The translations under genes and the position numbers were made by a program. Below the pieces are notes generated by a model. That model was not told the DNA's origin and made no database searches. It was given only the letters and a program-made list of their open reading frames with translations. Shown piece after piece: positions 4,221-51,564 of a stretch of 64,000 nucleotides of DNA; positions within the stretch are counted from its first letter, which is position 1, and the number at the start of each line of letters is the position of its first letter. Origin of the DNA: Escherichia phage RB3; sequence record KM606994. One strand, 5' to 3'.

Positions 4221-5030
4221 ATGCTTAAAGAACAACTGATTGCCGAAGCGCAGAAAATTGATGCTTCCGTTGCTCTTGATAGTATTTTCGAATCAGTTAA
4301 TATTTCTCCGGAAGCAAAAGAAACTTTCGGCACTGTATTCGAAGCTACCGTCAAGCAGCACGCCGTTAAATTAGCTGAATCTCATATCGCTAAAATTGCT
4401 GAAAAAGCAGAAGAAGAAGTAGAAAAAAATAAAGAAGAAGCCGAAGAAAAAGCTGAGAAGAAAATCGCTGAGCAAGCTTCTAAATTCATTGACCATCTTG
4501 CGAAAGAATGGCTCGCTGAAAATAAATTAGCAGTTGATAAAGGCATCAAAGCCGAACTGTTTGAATCCATGCTTGGTGGATTAAAAGAGCTCTTTGTTGA
4601 ACACAACGTTGTTGTTCCAGAAGAATCAGTTGATGTTGTAGCTGAAATGGAAGAAGAGCTGCAAGAACATAAAGAAGAATCAGCTCGTCTGTTCGAAGAA
4701 CTCAATATGCGCGACGCATATATCAATTATGTGCAGCGTGAAGTGGCATTGAGCGAAAGTACTAAAGATCTGACTGAGTCTCAAAAAGAAAAAGTCTCTG
4801 CTCTGGTCGAAGGTATGGATTATTCAGATGCATTCTCAAGTAAATTGAGTGCAATCGTAGAAATGGTGAAGAAATCTAATAAAGATGAAAGCACTATTAC
4901 TGAGAGTATAAATACTCCTGATACTGAAGCAGCCGGACTGAATTTCGTCACTGAAGCTGTAGAAGATAAAGCTGCACAAGGTGCAGAAGATATTGTAAGT
5001 GTATATGCGAAAGTCGCATCTCGTTTCTAA
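4221..5030 (+). CDS. 22: Prohead scaffold protein gp22
   Basis: 269 aa, highly charged coiled-coil-like E/K-rich sequence; late promoter at 4186-4193. Confidence 0.9.
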   Translation: MLKEQLIAEAQKIDASVALDSIFESVNISPEAKETFGTVFEATVKQHAVKLAESHIAKIAEKAEEEVEKNKEEAEEKAEKKIAEQASKFIDHLAKEWLAENKLAVDKGIKAELFESMLGGLKELFVEHNVVVPEESVDVVAEMEEELQEHKEESARLFEELNMRDAYINYVQREVALSESTKDLTESQKEKVSALVEGMDYSDAFSSKLSAIVEMVKKSNKDESTITESINTPDTEAAGLNFVTEAVEDKAAQGAEDIVSVYAKVASRF

Positions 5031-45727: not shown

Positions 45728-46743
45728 CATTATGTTCAGATAAGGTCGTTAATCTTACCCCGGAATTATATCCAGCTGCATGTCACCATGCAGATCAGAC
45801 TATATCTCCAACTTGTTAAAGCAAGTTGTCTATCGTTTCGAGTCACTTGACCCTACTCCCCAAAGGGATAGTCGTTAGGCATTTATGTAGAACCAATTCC
45901 ATTTATCAGATTTTACACGATAAGTAACTAATCCAGACGAAATTTTAAAATGTCTAGCTGCATCTGCTGCACAATCAAAAATAACCCCATCACATGAAAT
46001 CTTTTTAATATTACTAGGCTTTTTACCTTTCATCTTTTCTGATATTTTAGATTTAGTTATGTCTGAATGCTTATGATTAAAGAATGAATTATTTTCACCT
46101 GAACGATTTCTGCATTTACTACAAGTATAAGCAGAAGTTTGTATGCGAACACCGCACTTACAAAACTTATGGGTTTCTGGATTCCAACGCCCGTTTTTAC
46201 TTCCGGGTTTACTGTAAAGAGCTTTCCGACCATCAGGTCCAAGTTTAAGCATCTTAGCTTTAACAGTTTCAGAACGTTTCTTAATAATTTCTTCTTTTAA
46301 TGGATGCGTAGAACATGTATCACCAAACGTTGCATCAGCAATATTGTATCCATTAATTTTAGAATTAAGCTCTTTAATCCAAAAATTTTCTCGTTCAATA
46401 ATCAAATCTTTCTCATATGGAATTTCTTCCAAAATAGAACATTCAAACACATTACCATGTTTGTTAAAAGACCTCTGAAGTTTTATAGAAGAATGGCATC
46501 CTTTTTCTAAATCTTTAAAATGCCTCTTCCATCTCTTTTCAAAATCTTTAGCACTTCCTACATATACTTTATTGTTTAAAGTATTTTTAATCTGATAAAT
46601 TCCGCTTTTCATAAATACCTCTTTAAATATAGAAGTATTTATTAAAGGGCAGTCCTACAATTTAGCACGGGATTGTCTACTAGAGAGGTTCCCCGTTTAG
46701 ATAGATTACAAGTATAAGTCACCTTATACTCAGGCCTCAATTA
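45728..46743 (-). mobile_element. Group I self-splicing intron in td (1016 nt) carrying I-TevI
   Basis: 5' end TAATTGAGGCCTGAGTATAAGGTG after exon ...TTGGGT; 3' end ...CATAATG; length equals the T4 td intron. Confidence 0.92.
45875..46612 (-). CDS. Intron-encoded GIY-YIG homing endonuclease I-TevI
   Basis: 245 aa; MKSGIYQIKNTLNNKVYVGSAK... Confidence 0.93.
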   Translation of the reverse strand: MKSGIYQIKNTLNNKVYVGSAKDFEKRWKRHFKDLEKGCHSSIKLQRSFNKHGNVFECSILEEIPYEKDLIIERENFWIKELNSKINGYNIADATFGDTCSTHPLKEEIIKKRSETVKAKMLKLGPDGRKALYSKPGSKNGRWNPETHKFCKCGVRIQTSAYTCSKCRNRSGENNSFFNHKHSDITKSKISEKMKGKKPSNIKKISCDGVIFDCAADAARHFKISSGLVTYRVKSDKWNWFYINA

Positions 46744-47336: not shown

Positions 47337-48533
<1,197 letters not shown>

Positions 48534-48554
48534 ATTACCTCCTATTAAAAAGGA

Positions 48555-48878
48555 TCAGGAAACATATCCACTAGATTTAATCATTTTAATTAATGTTAAC
48601 ATTCCTTTATTAACTGCTCGTGAGATTTCATCAAAAACTTCATCGCTAAAAAGTTCTAACACGCCATACTGAACTTTTAATTTACAGCCAGCAATTTCGT
48701 TTTCGCCTATAGTAAATTCGTTTCCGCCAATTCCACCGAAAAACTTAATCACGCCAGTTAACTGTCTTCCACGAGAATATGGGTCGTGTGATAAAGTAAT
48801 ATGAGTCACCCCAGGTACAGTTTTAAATTGGCAGCGAATGTTTACTTGGGAAATTCCAGTTACATGAATGTCAGACAT
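48555..48878 (-). CDS. Hypothetical protein
   Basis: 107-aa ORF. Confidence 0.45.
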   Translation of the reverse strand: MSDIHVTGISQVNIRCQFKTVPGVTHITLSHDPYSRGRQLTGVIKFFGGIGGNEFTIGENEIAGCKLKVQYGVLELFSDEVFDEISRAVNKGMLTLIKMIKSSGYVS

Positions 48879-48888
48879 AATATTTTCC

Positions 48889-49131
48889 TCAGACGGACTT
48901 TTTCACAATTTTCCAATCGGCTTTAAACTGTTCAACGTCAGAGTGGTAAATCCAGAATCCTGCGCTTTCTCCATCTTCATAAAGAGGACATCCATCGCAT
49001 TCATCTTCCCATCCCATATCACGCAAAAGACGTTCAGCTTTTTCAACAAGTTCAGAATCTTTACCGATGATATTAAAATACCATTTACCTCTAACTTCTG
49101 AATCTTTGATGCTCTGGCGTTGTAATCTCAT
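48889..49131 (-). CDS. Hypothetical protein
   Basis: 80-aa ORF; early promoter and SD GGAGAATAAA upstream. Confidence 0.5.
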   Translation of the reverse strand: MRLQRQSIKDSEVRGKWYFNIIGKDSELVEKAERLLRDMGWEDECDGCPLYEDGESAGFWIYHSDVEQFKADWKIVKKSV

Positions 49132-49156
49132 TTTATTCTCCTTAGTTGATAGGGTA

Positions 49157-49186
49157 ATAGTATCACACTACTACCCTTCTGTAAAC
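49157..49186 (-). promoter_or_regulatory. Early promoter upstream of ORF 48889-49131
   Basis: GTTTAC-18 nt-TACTAT on minus strand. Confidence 0.55.
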
Positions 49187-49551
49187 TACTTTTTGAAAGT
49201 TTTTCGCAAAAGTTCAATGATTTCATCTACATTGTTTTCGTCTACAATGCAGTGAATTTTTGTTACGCCAGAAATCTTGTCTTCGACTTCGTCTTCTTCA
49301 GAAGTCGGTTCTTTATACTCACGAAAACAATGAAATTCGTCTTCGCAGACGTTGAAGTAAAAATGCTTTCCATTTGCGCATTCAATGTGTTTTATTACTC
49401 TAAATCCATCAGCAGAGAAAGCTTCTTTAACTTCAAACCATCCGCCATTTTCTTGAATAATTTTAACTATTGATGAATTAGAACGTGGGCGATAATTAAT
49501 AAATGTATTAATAAGTCTTGGAACAAACTCATACTTTTTGCCAATATACAT
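49186..49551 (-). CDS. Hypothetical protein
   Basis: 121-aa ORF. Confidence 0.45.
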   Translation of the reverse strand: MYIGKKYEFVPRLINTFINYRPRSNSSIVKIIQENGGWFEVKEAFSADGFRVIKHIECANGKHFYFNVCEDEFHCFREYKEPTSEEDEVEDKISGVTKIHCIVDENNVDEIIELLRKTFKK

Positions 49552-49595
49552 TACGTTTTCCTCATTTTAACGGGGCTATTACAGCCCCTTGATAA

Positions 49596-49823
49596 TTATT
49601 GTTCGATCAGTCCCATGTAAAATTCTGTGTCTTCAGAATCCATGCCATCACAATATTCATTAGCCATAAAGCGGGTAAGGTCTTCAAGAGGACCTTCAAT
49701 GACAATAGAAAAATTGCAATAATTGGGATCATCATGAATACTTGTGATACTAAGTTCAGGATAACGATTACGAATAATTTCTTCAATATATTCAAAATCA
49801 ACGATGTCAATATCAACTTTAGC
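49596..49823 (-). CDS. Hypothetical small acidic protein
   Basis: 75 aa from [11 protein letters not shown]...; SD AAAGAGGAAAA. Confidence 0.4.
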
Positions 49824-49920
49824 CATATTATTTTCCTCTTTAATTATCAACAGTATTGCCGATAGTTGTATAGTACCATGGAAGGACAAGGATGTAAACC
49901 GTTTTGTGAAAAAATTTTTG

Positions 49921-49949
49921 AAATAAAAAAGGGGACCTCTAGGGTCCCC
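49921..49949 (-). terminator. Terminator after gene 32
   Basis: Minus strand GGGGACC-CUAGA-GGUCCCC followed by UUUUUUAUUU. Confidence 0.8.
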
Positions 49950-49971: not shown

Positions 49972-50877
49972 TTAAAGGTCATTCAAAAGGTCATCTAGGT
50001 CCGTGTCATCAGCACTAGATGAACTGCCAGAGCTTGAGCTCATAAAATCATCTTCAGTTTTTGTATTGAAGTCATCAACATTGAATGCATCCAAATCATC
50101 AGCAACTTTATCAGCTTTCTTAGCAGCAGTCGCTGCGGCACCACCCATTGCAGCAGTTCCCATAACTTGACTGAACTTAGTGCTCAGTTCTTCAAACGAT
50201 TTGAATTTATCTTTAGAAGTCATTTCAGAAAGGTCAACCATTTGTTCGAACAGTTCTTTCTGGAAAGATTCATCGTCAATGTTTGGAATCGCAGATTGAT
50301 TCAGGAATTTAGATTCGTCGTAGTTACTAAATCCAGAAACCTGTTTAACTTTCAGTACAAAGTTAGCACCTTCCCACGGACAAGTTACATCAACTGGAGT
50401 TTCACCCATTTCAACATCAACCGCAATCATCGCGTTGATTTTATCCCAGATTTTCTTACCGAAACGGTATTTAAATACTTTACCTTCATTTTCTGGAGCA
50501 GCTGGGTCTTTTACAACAAGAATGTTAGCCCAGTAAGAAGTTTTACGTTTAACAAGACTATACTCTTTATTGTCAGTGTTGTACAGATCATTTTTACTGA
50601 TGTATTGACATACTGGGCAAGAATCGTAATCACCATGGGTAGATGAACATGTTTCAATATACCATTTACCATTTTTCTTGAAACCGTGATTTACAAGAAT
50701 TGCGAATGGTGCTTGTTCATCATTTTTAGACGGAAGAAAACGAATTACTGCTTGACCGTTACCCGCATTATCGAGTTTCAGTTTCCACTCGCCTTTATCT
50801 TCAGAAGAAAAACCTTTATTGCCATTCAGTTTAGCCATTTGTGCAGCAAGTTCAGCAGTAGATTTACGTTTAAACAT
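49972..50877 (-). CDS. 32: Single-stranded DNA-binding protein gp32
   Basis: 301 aa; Zn-binding Cys/His cluster; acidic C-terminus; terminator downstream. Confidence 0.95.
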
Positions 50878-50935
50878 TTTATTTCCTTTTTAACTTAATT
50901 TAATTAACAGTTGGTGCTATGACACTTTACCTCAT
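50878..50935 (-). promoter_or_regulatory. Gene 32 translational operator (autoregulatory 5' leader)
   Basis: Leader ...GTGTCATAGCACCAACTG then AU-rich UUAAUUAAAUUAAGUUAAAAAGGAAAUAAAAUG, matching the remembered T4 gene 32 operator architecture. Confidence 0.55.
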
Positions 50936-51564
50936 AGCTGGCATAATTTGCAATACTCTGGGTCTTCGAGAGGTATCCAACCTGAGTTGAAATACTTTAC
51001 CATCGATTTAGCAGTTGTATCAGTTATATTTATATTACCTTTAACTCTTCGCCATCCAGGAGTTTTACCGTACAGATTAGAGGATAATAATAACACATAA
51101 TTCTCGTAAGCAATATGAGATAATTTCCAAGACTCTATATTAGCTCGTGATGTTTTCCAAGGTCTAAAATCGTCACGGTTCATATAATTAGCCAATCTCA
51201 TATGCTCTCTAACTTCCGGGTCTTTGGCTGGATGAGTTTCACCACTCACACCAAATCCACCACCAGCATATACCAGATTAAAATAGTCTGGATTATCTCT
51301 GGCATTTACTTCAAGTTGGTATTTTCGTTCTGCTTCAATAACATCCAAGTCATCATCAATTTGAATTATTTTAACGCTCGGTTTTTGAAGCATTAGCGCA
51401 TTCAAAAATCTTTTTTGTTTACATGAGCTCCAGTATTCCTTTCCGGAAGAGTCATATATTATTCCATTCTCAAATGAGCAATTTAATTTACTACCGATAT
51501 AGTAGTATGGCGGAGTCTTATTTTTGACACGGTCTTCAAATGTAAACCAATATACTATATTCAT
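50932..51564 (-). CDS. segG: GIY-YIG homing endonuclease SegG-like
   Basis: 210 aa; GIY-YIG-like (IVYWFTF...PYYYIGSK); between gene 32 and 59. Confidence 0.72.
   Translation of the reverse strand: MNIVYWFTFEDRVKNKTPPYYYIGSKLNCSFENGIIYDSSGKEYWSSCKQKRFLNALMLQKPSVKIIQIDDDLDVIEAERKYQLEVNARDNPDYFNLVYAGGGFGVSGETHPAKDPEVREHMRLANYMNRDDFRPWKTSRANIESWKLSHIAYENYVLLLSSNLYGKTPGWRRVKGNINITDTTAKSMVKYFNSGWIPLEDPEYCKLCQL

Follow-up and report, generated by a model that had tools for sequence, protein, structure and literature searches.

Gene content of the gene 32-frd interval

The window analysed here is a 64,000 nt stretch of Escherichia phage RB3 (KM606994), in which the interval of interest is flanked by gene 32 (49972-50877, minus strand) and frd (47674-48288, minus strand). 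All genes at this locus lie on the minus strand, and transcription proceeds from gene 32 through frd towards td. Five ORFs occupy the interval in the order frd.3, frd.2, frd.1, ORF107 and ORF81. The full set spans 48288-49826; the segment delimited in the initial annotation (48555-49551) includes just three of the five. That annotation noted more small ORFs than the three of T4, and indeed the T4 genome annotates only frd.1, frd.2 and frd.3 here. The corresponding 1801 nt stretch is 100% identical in RB5, RB6, RB7, RB9 and RB10 (species Tequatrovirus RB3), which are represented below by RB5, and the 1.8 kb stretch is 94-96% identical to hundreds of further Tequatrovirus genomes. The RB5 GenBank record (KM606995) labels frd.1, frd.2 and frd.3, names ORF81 hypothetical protein RB5_232 and has no feature at ORF107.

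Because ORFs of 62-88 aa are also present on the opposite strand of the interval, ORF length alone is weak evidence for a gene. Some of the five might accordingly be frames left open by chance in AT-rich intergenic DNA, as could also be argued from their lack of a known function and their low-confidence structure models. However, the ATG of each of the five ORFs is preceded, at a correct spacing of 6-9 nt, by a Shine-Dalgarno sequence, with GAGGAAAA or GGAG motifs common to the gene starts of the interval, and each matches a family HMM in Pfam or PHROG (E from 1e-32 to 1e-53). Moreover, frd.1 and ORF81 show a strong excess of synonymous changes, and ORF107 is maintained at 33-48% identity in other genera and in Phapecoctavirus. 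Chance frames are therefore scarcely credible, and the Shine-Dalgarno sites, conservation and dN/dS values demonstrate that the five ORFs are genuine genes. The earlier statement that none has a recognisable motif is correct with respect to function, as all of the matched families are of unknown function, but it does not extend to family assignment.

Orthologues of T4 frd.1, frd.2 and frd.3

Three of the genes are orthologues of their T4 namesakes. The first, frd.3 (49596-49826, minus strand), encodes an acidic protein of 76 aa when counted from the ATG that is preceded by a Shine-Dalgarno site (AAAGAGGAAAATAAT-ATG). This protein belongs to the Pfam family Phage_FRD3 (PF05798; E=1.9e-37, 128 bits versus a cut-off of 28.1), its gene occupies the position after gene 32 that is orthologous to T4, and it is 86% identical to T4 Frd.3 and 99-100% identical to its counterparts in RB27 and MLF4. 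The frd.3 mRNA of T4 has been reported among abundant NAD-capped early phage transcripts (bioRxiv 10.1101/2024.04.04.588121).

The 121 aa product of frd.2 (49186-49551, minus strand) is a member of Pfam FRD2 (PF03197; E=5.9e-32, 110.7 bits versus a cut-off of 29), and its gene is likewise found in the orthologous position. This gene exists as two alleles, one of 121 aa that is present here and in T2 and MLF4, and one of 128 aa that is present in T4, T6 and RB27. Identity is 91-96% to T2 and MLF4 (91% to T2) and 66-67% to T4, T6 and RB27 (67% to T4). The two alleles are old, with a dS of about 0.8-1.0 and a dN/dS of about 0.25 between them. An amber mutation in T4 frd.2 leaves plating normal (PMC12152347), and frd.2 was scored as a fitness gene in a CRISPRi-ART screen (PMC11879866).

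The 80 aa product of frd.1 (48889-49131, minus strand) belongs to Pfam DUF5417 (E=1.7e-33, 115.1 bits versus a cut-off of 23.9), is 99% identical to T4 Frd.1 and is encoded at the matching position next to frd.2. The gene is present in 1416 phage records; none of the papers found in our literature search mentions DUF5417.

ORF107 is a DUF7247 protein

ORF107 (48555-48878, minus strand) is absent from both T4 and T2. It begins with a Shine-Dalgarno sequence and start codon of the form CTGAGGAAAATATT-ATG and encodes 107 aa that belong to DUF7247 (PF23905), with a score of 142.8 bits (E=7.2e-42) versus a Pfam gathering cut-off of 27 bits. Residues 1-106 align to positions 1-102 of the 106-position model, and the protein also matches phrog_3566 (E=6e-53). 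It has the form typical of the family, a stand-alone protein of about 100-120 aa whose N-terminus bears a conserved RCQF...PGV motif and whose C-terminus bears a G..L..M helix. The DUF7247 model was matched by all 11 diverse relatives of ORF107. Among 11 sequences with 29-90% identity, ten residues are invariant (R15, C16, Q17, P22, G23, I27, G92, L96 and M99 among them), and ORF107 retains all ten.

When 1.84 billion representative proteins were searched exhaustively with a HMMER profile, nine true DUF7247 clusters were recovered, all of stand-alone proteins of 99-113 aa, and no fused or bacterial relatives were found. Two long matches from the same search proved to be tandem-repeat artefacts. 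Profiles built from two alignments gave nothing below E=0.3 when searched against PDB sequences, and no meaningful match was obtained in NCBIfam or PADLOC. Our literature search found nothing on RB32ORF231c, RB51ORF237, phrog_3566, phrog_3183 or PF23905, and DUF7247 was mentioned in no paper that we found.

ORF81 overlaps the start of frd

ORF81 (48288-48533, minus strand), which is absent from T4, encodes an acidic protein of 81 aa (pI 4.05) that carries a CGECQRVC motif. The protein belongs to phrog_3183 (E=2.3e-43), with residues 1-81 aligned to model positions 1-80 of 80, and matches no Pfam family. Its Shine-Dalgarno sequence and start codon are AATAGGAGGTAAT-ATG. The stop codon of ORF81 overlaps the start codon of frd (TAATG), an arrangement through which translation of ORF81 may be coupled to that of frd.

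A profile of ORF81 gave nothing below E=0.3 against PDB sequences and nothing meaningful in NCBIfam. Five of the six proteins searched against PADLOC-DB models of defence and anti-defence proteins had no match, and ORF81 gave only a chance-level match to Cas8b (E=0.0066, 13 bits). AlphaFold2 models of ORF107 (mean pLDDT 39.7, 17-sequence alignment) and ORF81 (mean pLDDT 53.4, 9-sequence alignment) were unusable because the alignments are too shallow. We also used hhalign to compare ORF107, ORF81, frd.1, frd.3 and ORF115 with each other and with frd.2, GoF and MotB.1. The only relationship seen in this set was a weak match between frd.2 and MotB.1 (about 82 columns, 32% probability). ORF81 has no profile similarity to the GoF/MotB.1/Frd.2 family, and ORF107, considered as a further LSm-like family member, was rejected on the same comparison.

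Promoters and hairpins

Downstream of gene 32, a terminator scan and inspection of the sequence identified an intrinsic terminator (49931..49949, minus strand) formed by GGGGACC-CTAGA-GGTCCCC followed by TTTTTTATTT, which supplies the stem-loop of a promoter-early stem-loop (PeSL)-type element. A terminator is annotated at the matching relative place after gene 32 in wV7. Upstream of frd.3 is a consensus match to an early sigma-70-type promoter (49870..49898, minus strand; TTTACA-N17-TACTAT) with a TG extension and an AT-rich stretch upstream. This sequence agrees with the PeSL promoter consensus of T4 and PST, TTTACW-N17-TAYWAT (PMC4122927), and the putative promoter would drive frd.3 and frd.2.

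A second match to the same consensus (49157..49185, minus strand; TTTACA-N17-TACTAT preceded by TG) lies just upstream of frd.1 and overlaps the final bases of frd.2. It accounts for the internal early promoter reported in the initial annotation, and the T4 version is nearly identical. This putative promoter would drive frd.1, ORF107, ORF81 and frd, and the terminator scan revealed no terminator-like site between it and frd. Judging from these consensus matches, both promoters would read on into frd and td. A MotA-box scan of the interval found no middle promoter.

Two hairpins were examined. The GC hairpin that had been reported at 49572-49588 is present (minus strand; GGGGCT-ATTAC-AGCCCC), located 5 nt beyond the frd.3 stop codon and ~12 nt before the frd.2 Shine-Dalgarno site. 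Across six phages (RB5, T4, T2, T6, MLF4 and RB27), the stem is constant and the loop variable. The predicted fold of -11.9 kcal/mol is unremarkable in context, with a z-score of only -1.07 versus shuffled sequences. The stem-loop has no U tract and therefore is not a canonical terminator. A more stable predicted hairpin (49143..49188, minus strand; -17.1 kcal/mol, z -3.1) lies just beyond the frd.2 stop codon and includes the spacer and -10 region of the frd.1 promoter match. Folding is just as strong in two further haplotypes (z -3.8 and -4.2). A covariation test by fixed-register pair count found no double-sided changes, and thus the support for this hairpin is its folding energy.

T4 has lost two widespread genes

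To determine how widespread these genes are, we searched 50,697 phage records with tblastn or blastn and counted the matches. These counts take in duplicate RefSeq and GenBank entries as well as partial genomes, and so percentages derived from them are approximate. The roughly 514 records that carry frd.1 at 90% identity or more provide a rough Tequatrovirus baseline. The tblastn count for ORF81 is 468 phage records, of which 434 reach 90% identity or more, and the gene has essentially no relatives beyond Tequatrovirus. ORF107 is found in 476 records, with 238 at 60% identity or more. The other 238 copies are more distant and reside in phages of Klebsiella, Enterobacter, Citrobacter and Edwardsiella and in Phapecoctavirus. 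The two genes occur together in 219 records, T6 among them. Furthermore, in both Merlin (Moonvirus) and Shinkou (Jiaodavirus) the frd.1 homologue is followed immediately by a DUF7247 gene, and in Edwardsiella phage PEi26 the DUF7247 gene overlaps an annotated frd.1 feature. DUF7247 has thus long been part of this cluster, and both ORF107 and ORF81 are old, widespread Tequatrovirus genes.

The T4 sequence itself retains a trace of the missing genes. The spacer between frd.1 and frd in T4 is 71 nt long and aligns to RB5 in three pieces. The 16 nt immediately downstream of the frd.1 stop codon (GAGGAAAATATTATGT) match the ribosome-binding site and start of ORF107 at 16 of 16 positions. After a 9 nt gap, 25 of 31 nt match codons 5-15 of ORF107, and the last piece corresponds to the final ~10 nt of ORF81, which overlaps the frd start. 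T4 thus keeps a relic of ORF107, in which the ribosome-binding site and the ATG survive together with about 50 nt from the 5′ end of the gene. This T4-type junction is present in only 17 records. From these data we conclude that T4 lost ORF107 and ORF81 by a deletion of about 530 bp and that RB5 gained neither gene. The contrast between five early genes here and three in T4 exists because T4 deleted two widespread genes.

The opposite scenario, in which the RB5 group recently acquired ORF107 and ORF81 by insertion into a T4-like three-gene arrangement, takes its appeal from the absence of both genes from the reference phage T4 and from their lack of a known function or of relatives outside phages. 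Such an acquisition is nevertheless highly improbable given the relic in T4, the 17 records with the T4 junction versus 219 with both genes, an arrangement common to T6, RB27, MLF4 and many other phages, and the placement of DUF7247 downstream of frd.1 in other genera. The same observations overturn the suggestion in the initial annotation that the additional genes might be lineage specific, since T6 has both and T2 has ORF81. One-to-one orthology of all five ORFs with T4 genes fails because two genes of the interval have no T4 orthologue.

The interval is hypervariable, as had been proposed. Among the phages compared, gene 32 and frd are separated by three to nine ORFs: three in T4, four in T2, five in T6, MLF4 and RB5, six in RB27, wV7 and Shinkou, and nine in Merlin. 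At least six states of the slot between frd.1 and frd were observed. It is empty in L012, holds the ORF107 relic in T4, ORF81 alone in T2 and both ORF107 and ORF81 in T6, MLF4 and RB5. In wV7 and JLBYU31, ORF107 is accompanied by an unrelated JS98-like gene of 113 aa and a 30 aa relic of ORF81, and L011 carries an unrelated ORF of about 80 aa. The slot between frd.1 and frd is a cassette hot spot.

The boundaries of these events differ. T2 lost only ORF107, exactly between two Shine-Dalgarno regions, and an 84 bp indel upstream of frd.1 also has both of its ends in similar Shine-Dalgarno/start regions. These two cleanest indels therefore end in similar translation-initiation sequences (GAGGAAAA/GGAG...ATG). 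The T4 deletion ends within ORF107 and near the end of ORF81, both inside coding sequence. T4 and T2 each lost DUF7247 independently.

T4, T6 and about 197 records carry a conserved, hydrophobic mini-ORF of 22 codons upstream of frd.1. It is conceivable that this mini-ORF encodes an unannotated membrane micro-protein of T4.

ORF107 is a fast-changing protein

We calculated pairwise dN/dS ratios for 15 genomes by the Nei-Gojobori method, with 7-8 sequences per group and an identical set of genome pairs for every gene. IMG/VR yielded only five frd.1 loci, and therefore the DNA sequences were taken from GenBank phage records. In all comparisons, dN/dS was 0.04-0.06 for frd.1 and 0.04-0.08 for ORF81, values (about 0.05) that show strong purifying selection on both genes. 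ORF107 gave 0.16 within the allele group of 107-111 aa, 0.44 within the 119 aa group and 0.67 between the two groups. Its dS (0.13-0.23) resembles the values for neighbouring genes, and thus at like synonymous divergence its protein sequence changes ~10 times faster than those of ORF81 and frd.1. About 35 non-synonymous and 14 synonymous changes separate the groups, and by this estimate dN/dS between the groups does not seem to fall clearly below 1. These ratios and the conservation of ORF107 indicate that it is a real but fast-changing protein.

A copy of a gene with such high family dN/dS (0.44-0.67) and a history of repeated loss (T4 and T2) might instead be decaying and non-functional in the RB5 group. 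A 1 nt T insertion near the 3′ end of ORF107, which replaces the terminal PDPF with S, and the lack of an annotated feature in the RB5 record could be taken as further signs of decay. However, the 107 codons are open, the Shine-Dalgarno sequence is intact, and dN/dS is 0.16 within the allele group to which this copy belongs. In addition, the C-terminal tails of DUF7247 proteins differ naturally in length (from ...GYVS to ...PFQWEII), and none of the ten residues invariant across the family has been altered. Decay is thus quite unlikely, and we continue to treat ORF107 as a real protein under rapid change.

This rapid turnover of amino acids could perhaps reflect a variable host or defence partner, a reading we hold only tentatively, with relaxed constraint as the alternative. 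It is rather unlikely, as far as can be judged at present, that DUF7247 is a counter-defence or host-takeover protein engaged in an arms race. If this were true, whether DUF7247 is present, and in which of its two allele groups, would help to account for the differing sensitivity of T2, T4, T6 and the RB phages to particular E. coli defence systems. The fast protein evolution and repeated loss of DUF7247 make it a reasonable candidate for accessory-gene screens on defence-system panels.

Discussion

The interval very probably represents ordinary hyperplastic-region content of a T4-type phage, a string of small and dispensable early genes. The products would presumably act early, in host takeover or against host defences, and each may be dispensable individually. 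Cassettes may come and go by recombination between short regulatory repeats, as in the modular shuffling of T4-type phages. The ends of the T4 deletion inside coding sequence imply that not every event fits this regulatory-repeat mechanism.

The five-gene arrangement is already known, being present in GenBank for T6, RB32, RB51 and hundreds of isolates, and it is ordinary because it was T4 that deleted two widespread genes. The reference genome is thus a deletion outlier at this locus. As a consequence, annotation transfer based on T4 misses real genes, as exemplified by ORF107, which is unannotated in the records of RB5-RB10.

Comparison with known systems

The T4 frd cluster resembles that of RB5 in its flanking genes (32 and frd), its strand and its gene order, as well as in the frd.1 promoter and the frd.3-frd.2 hairpin. 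In contrast, RB5 has two extra genes between frd.1 and frd and a T2-like 121 aa allele of frd.2, whereas T4 has the 128 aa allele and an 84 bp segment upstream of frd.1, containing the 22-codon mini-ORF, that RB5 lacks. A closer parallel is provided by T6, RB32 and RB51, which have the same five genes in the same order. The ORF81 protein of T6 is 98% identical, and the T6 record notes the two extra genes as RB51ORF237 and RB32ORF231c. T6 differs in carrying the 119 aa allele of DUF7247, which is 61% identical to that of RB5, and frd.2 and frd.3 alleles of the T4 type.

At the protein level, frd.2 falls into the Frd.2 branch of the GoF/MotB.1/Frd.2 family by its match to Pfam FRD2. The N-terminal domain of this family is predicted to be LSm-like, a bent beta-sheet of five strands (LSm/SH3-like; Kim et al., 2025, PMC12152347).

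Recombination at PeSL elements or at other short stretches of homology reshuffles the small early ORFs in hyperplastic regions of T4-type phages (Arbiol et al., 2010, PMC2839356; Comeau et al., 2014, PMC4122927). The spacer between gene 32 and frd.3 has the PeSL layout, consisting of a stem-loop, an AT-rich stretch, TTTACA-N17-TACTAT, a Shine-Dalgarno sequence and an ATG. Unlike this layout, the hairpin at the frd.1 promoter overlaps the promoter rather than preceding it. The indels found here lie near PeSL-type elements, as expected of PeSL shuffling, but paired PeSLs, the boundaries expected of excision or integration as mini-circles, do not bound the T4 and T2 deletions or the 84 bp indel. 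In its general character the interval corresponds to these hyperplastic regions, being a cluster of early ORFs, small and without known function, that differ in number and identity among close relatives.

A putative micro-protein gene upstream of frd.1

In T4, T6, RB27 and others, an 84-bp segment follows the early promoter and precedes the Shine-Dalgarno site of frd.1. This segment, which lies in the region 4506-4643 of T4 (NC_000866; L002), is carried by 197 phage records, and has no counterpart in the window at about 49132-49156. RB5, T2 and MLF4 likewise lack it. Within the segment is a 22-codon ORF (MFAPYIMAAVMLVCLYLLIKAC), preceded by its own Shine-Dalgarno site, that encodes a hydrophobic product and is unannotated in NC_000866. 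Because the variable sites among the copies read comprise five synonymous changes and one non-synonymous change, the ORF appears to be a real micro-protein gene.

A stable hairpin (window 49143-49188; -17 kcal/mol, z -3.1) can also form where the early promoter of frd.1 has its spacer and -10 region. Two other haplotypes of this promoter fold with equal stability, and a fixed-register pair count revealed no double-sided compensatory changes in the hairpin. It could serve as a structure at the 3′ end of the frd.2 transcript, or it could be a feature of the promoter.

Altered gene ends near frd

ORF107, a DUF7247 protein gene (window 48555-48878), has no feature annotated over it in the GenBank record of RB5 (KM606995). 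Relative to close relatives, it carries a 1-nt T insertion near its 3′ end (GGATATGTTTCCTGA versus GGATATGTTCCTGATCCTTTTTAA), which replaces the final four residues, PDPF, with S. The 3′ end of frd (window 47674-47706) is changed as well. Its usual stop has been lost in RB5, adding 11 residues to give a product of 204 aa versus 193 aa in T4, T2, T6 and MLF4, and the extension creates an 11-nt overlap between frd and the ORF that follows.

Between frd and td lies an ORF of 115 aa (window 47337-47684) that belongs to phrog_1928 and to no Pfam family. It is missing from T4 because td and frd overlap in that phage. The same ORF is present in T6, RB27, MLF4 and wV7, and it also occurs in the T2 RefSeq record, yet is unannotated there. 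Distant homologues are found in Merlin and Shinkou.

Comparison with related phages

In wV7 and JLBYU31, the slot of ORF81, the phrog_3183 gene, is occupied by an unrelated gene of 113 aa that resembles JS98 gp228. Upstream of this gene in both phages sits a stop-interrupted relic of the ORF81 5′ end, 30 codons long (2202-2291 of L004, the wV7 locus). The pattern is the same as in T4, where a relic of the ORF107 5′ end persists.

The window also encodes I-TevI, the homing endonuclease of the td intron (45875-46612), and has segG in the interval from gene 32 to gene 59 (50932-51564). T4 has both genes at these places, like the window, whereas T2, MLF4 and RB27 have neither at the corresponding places.
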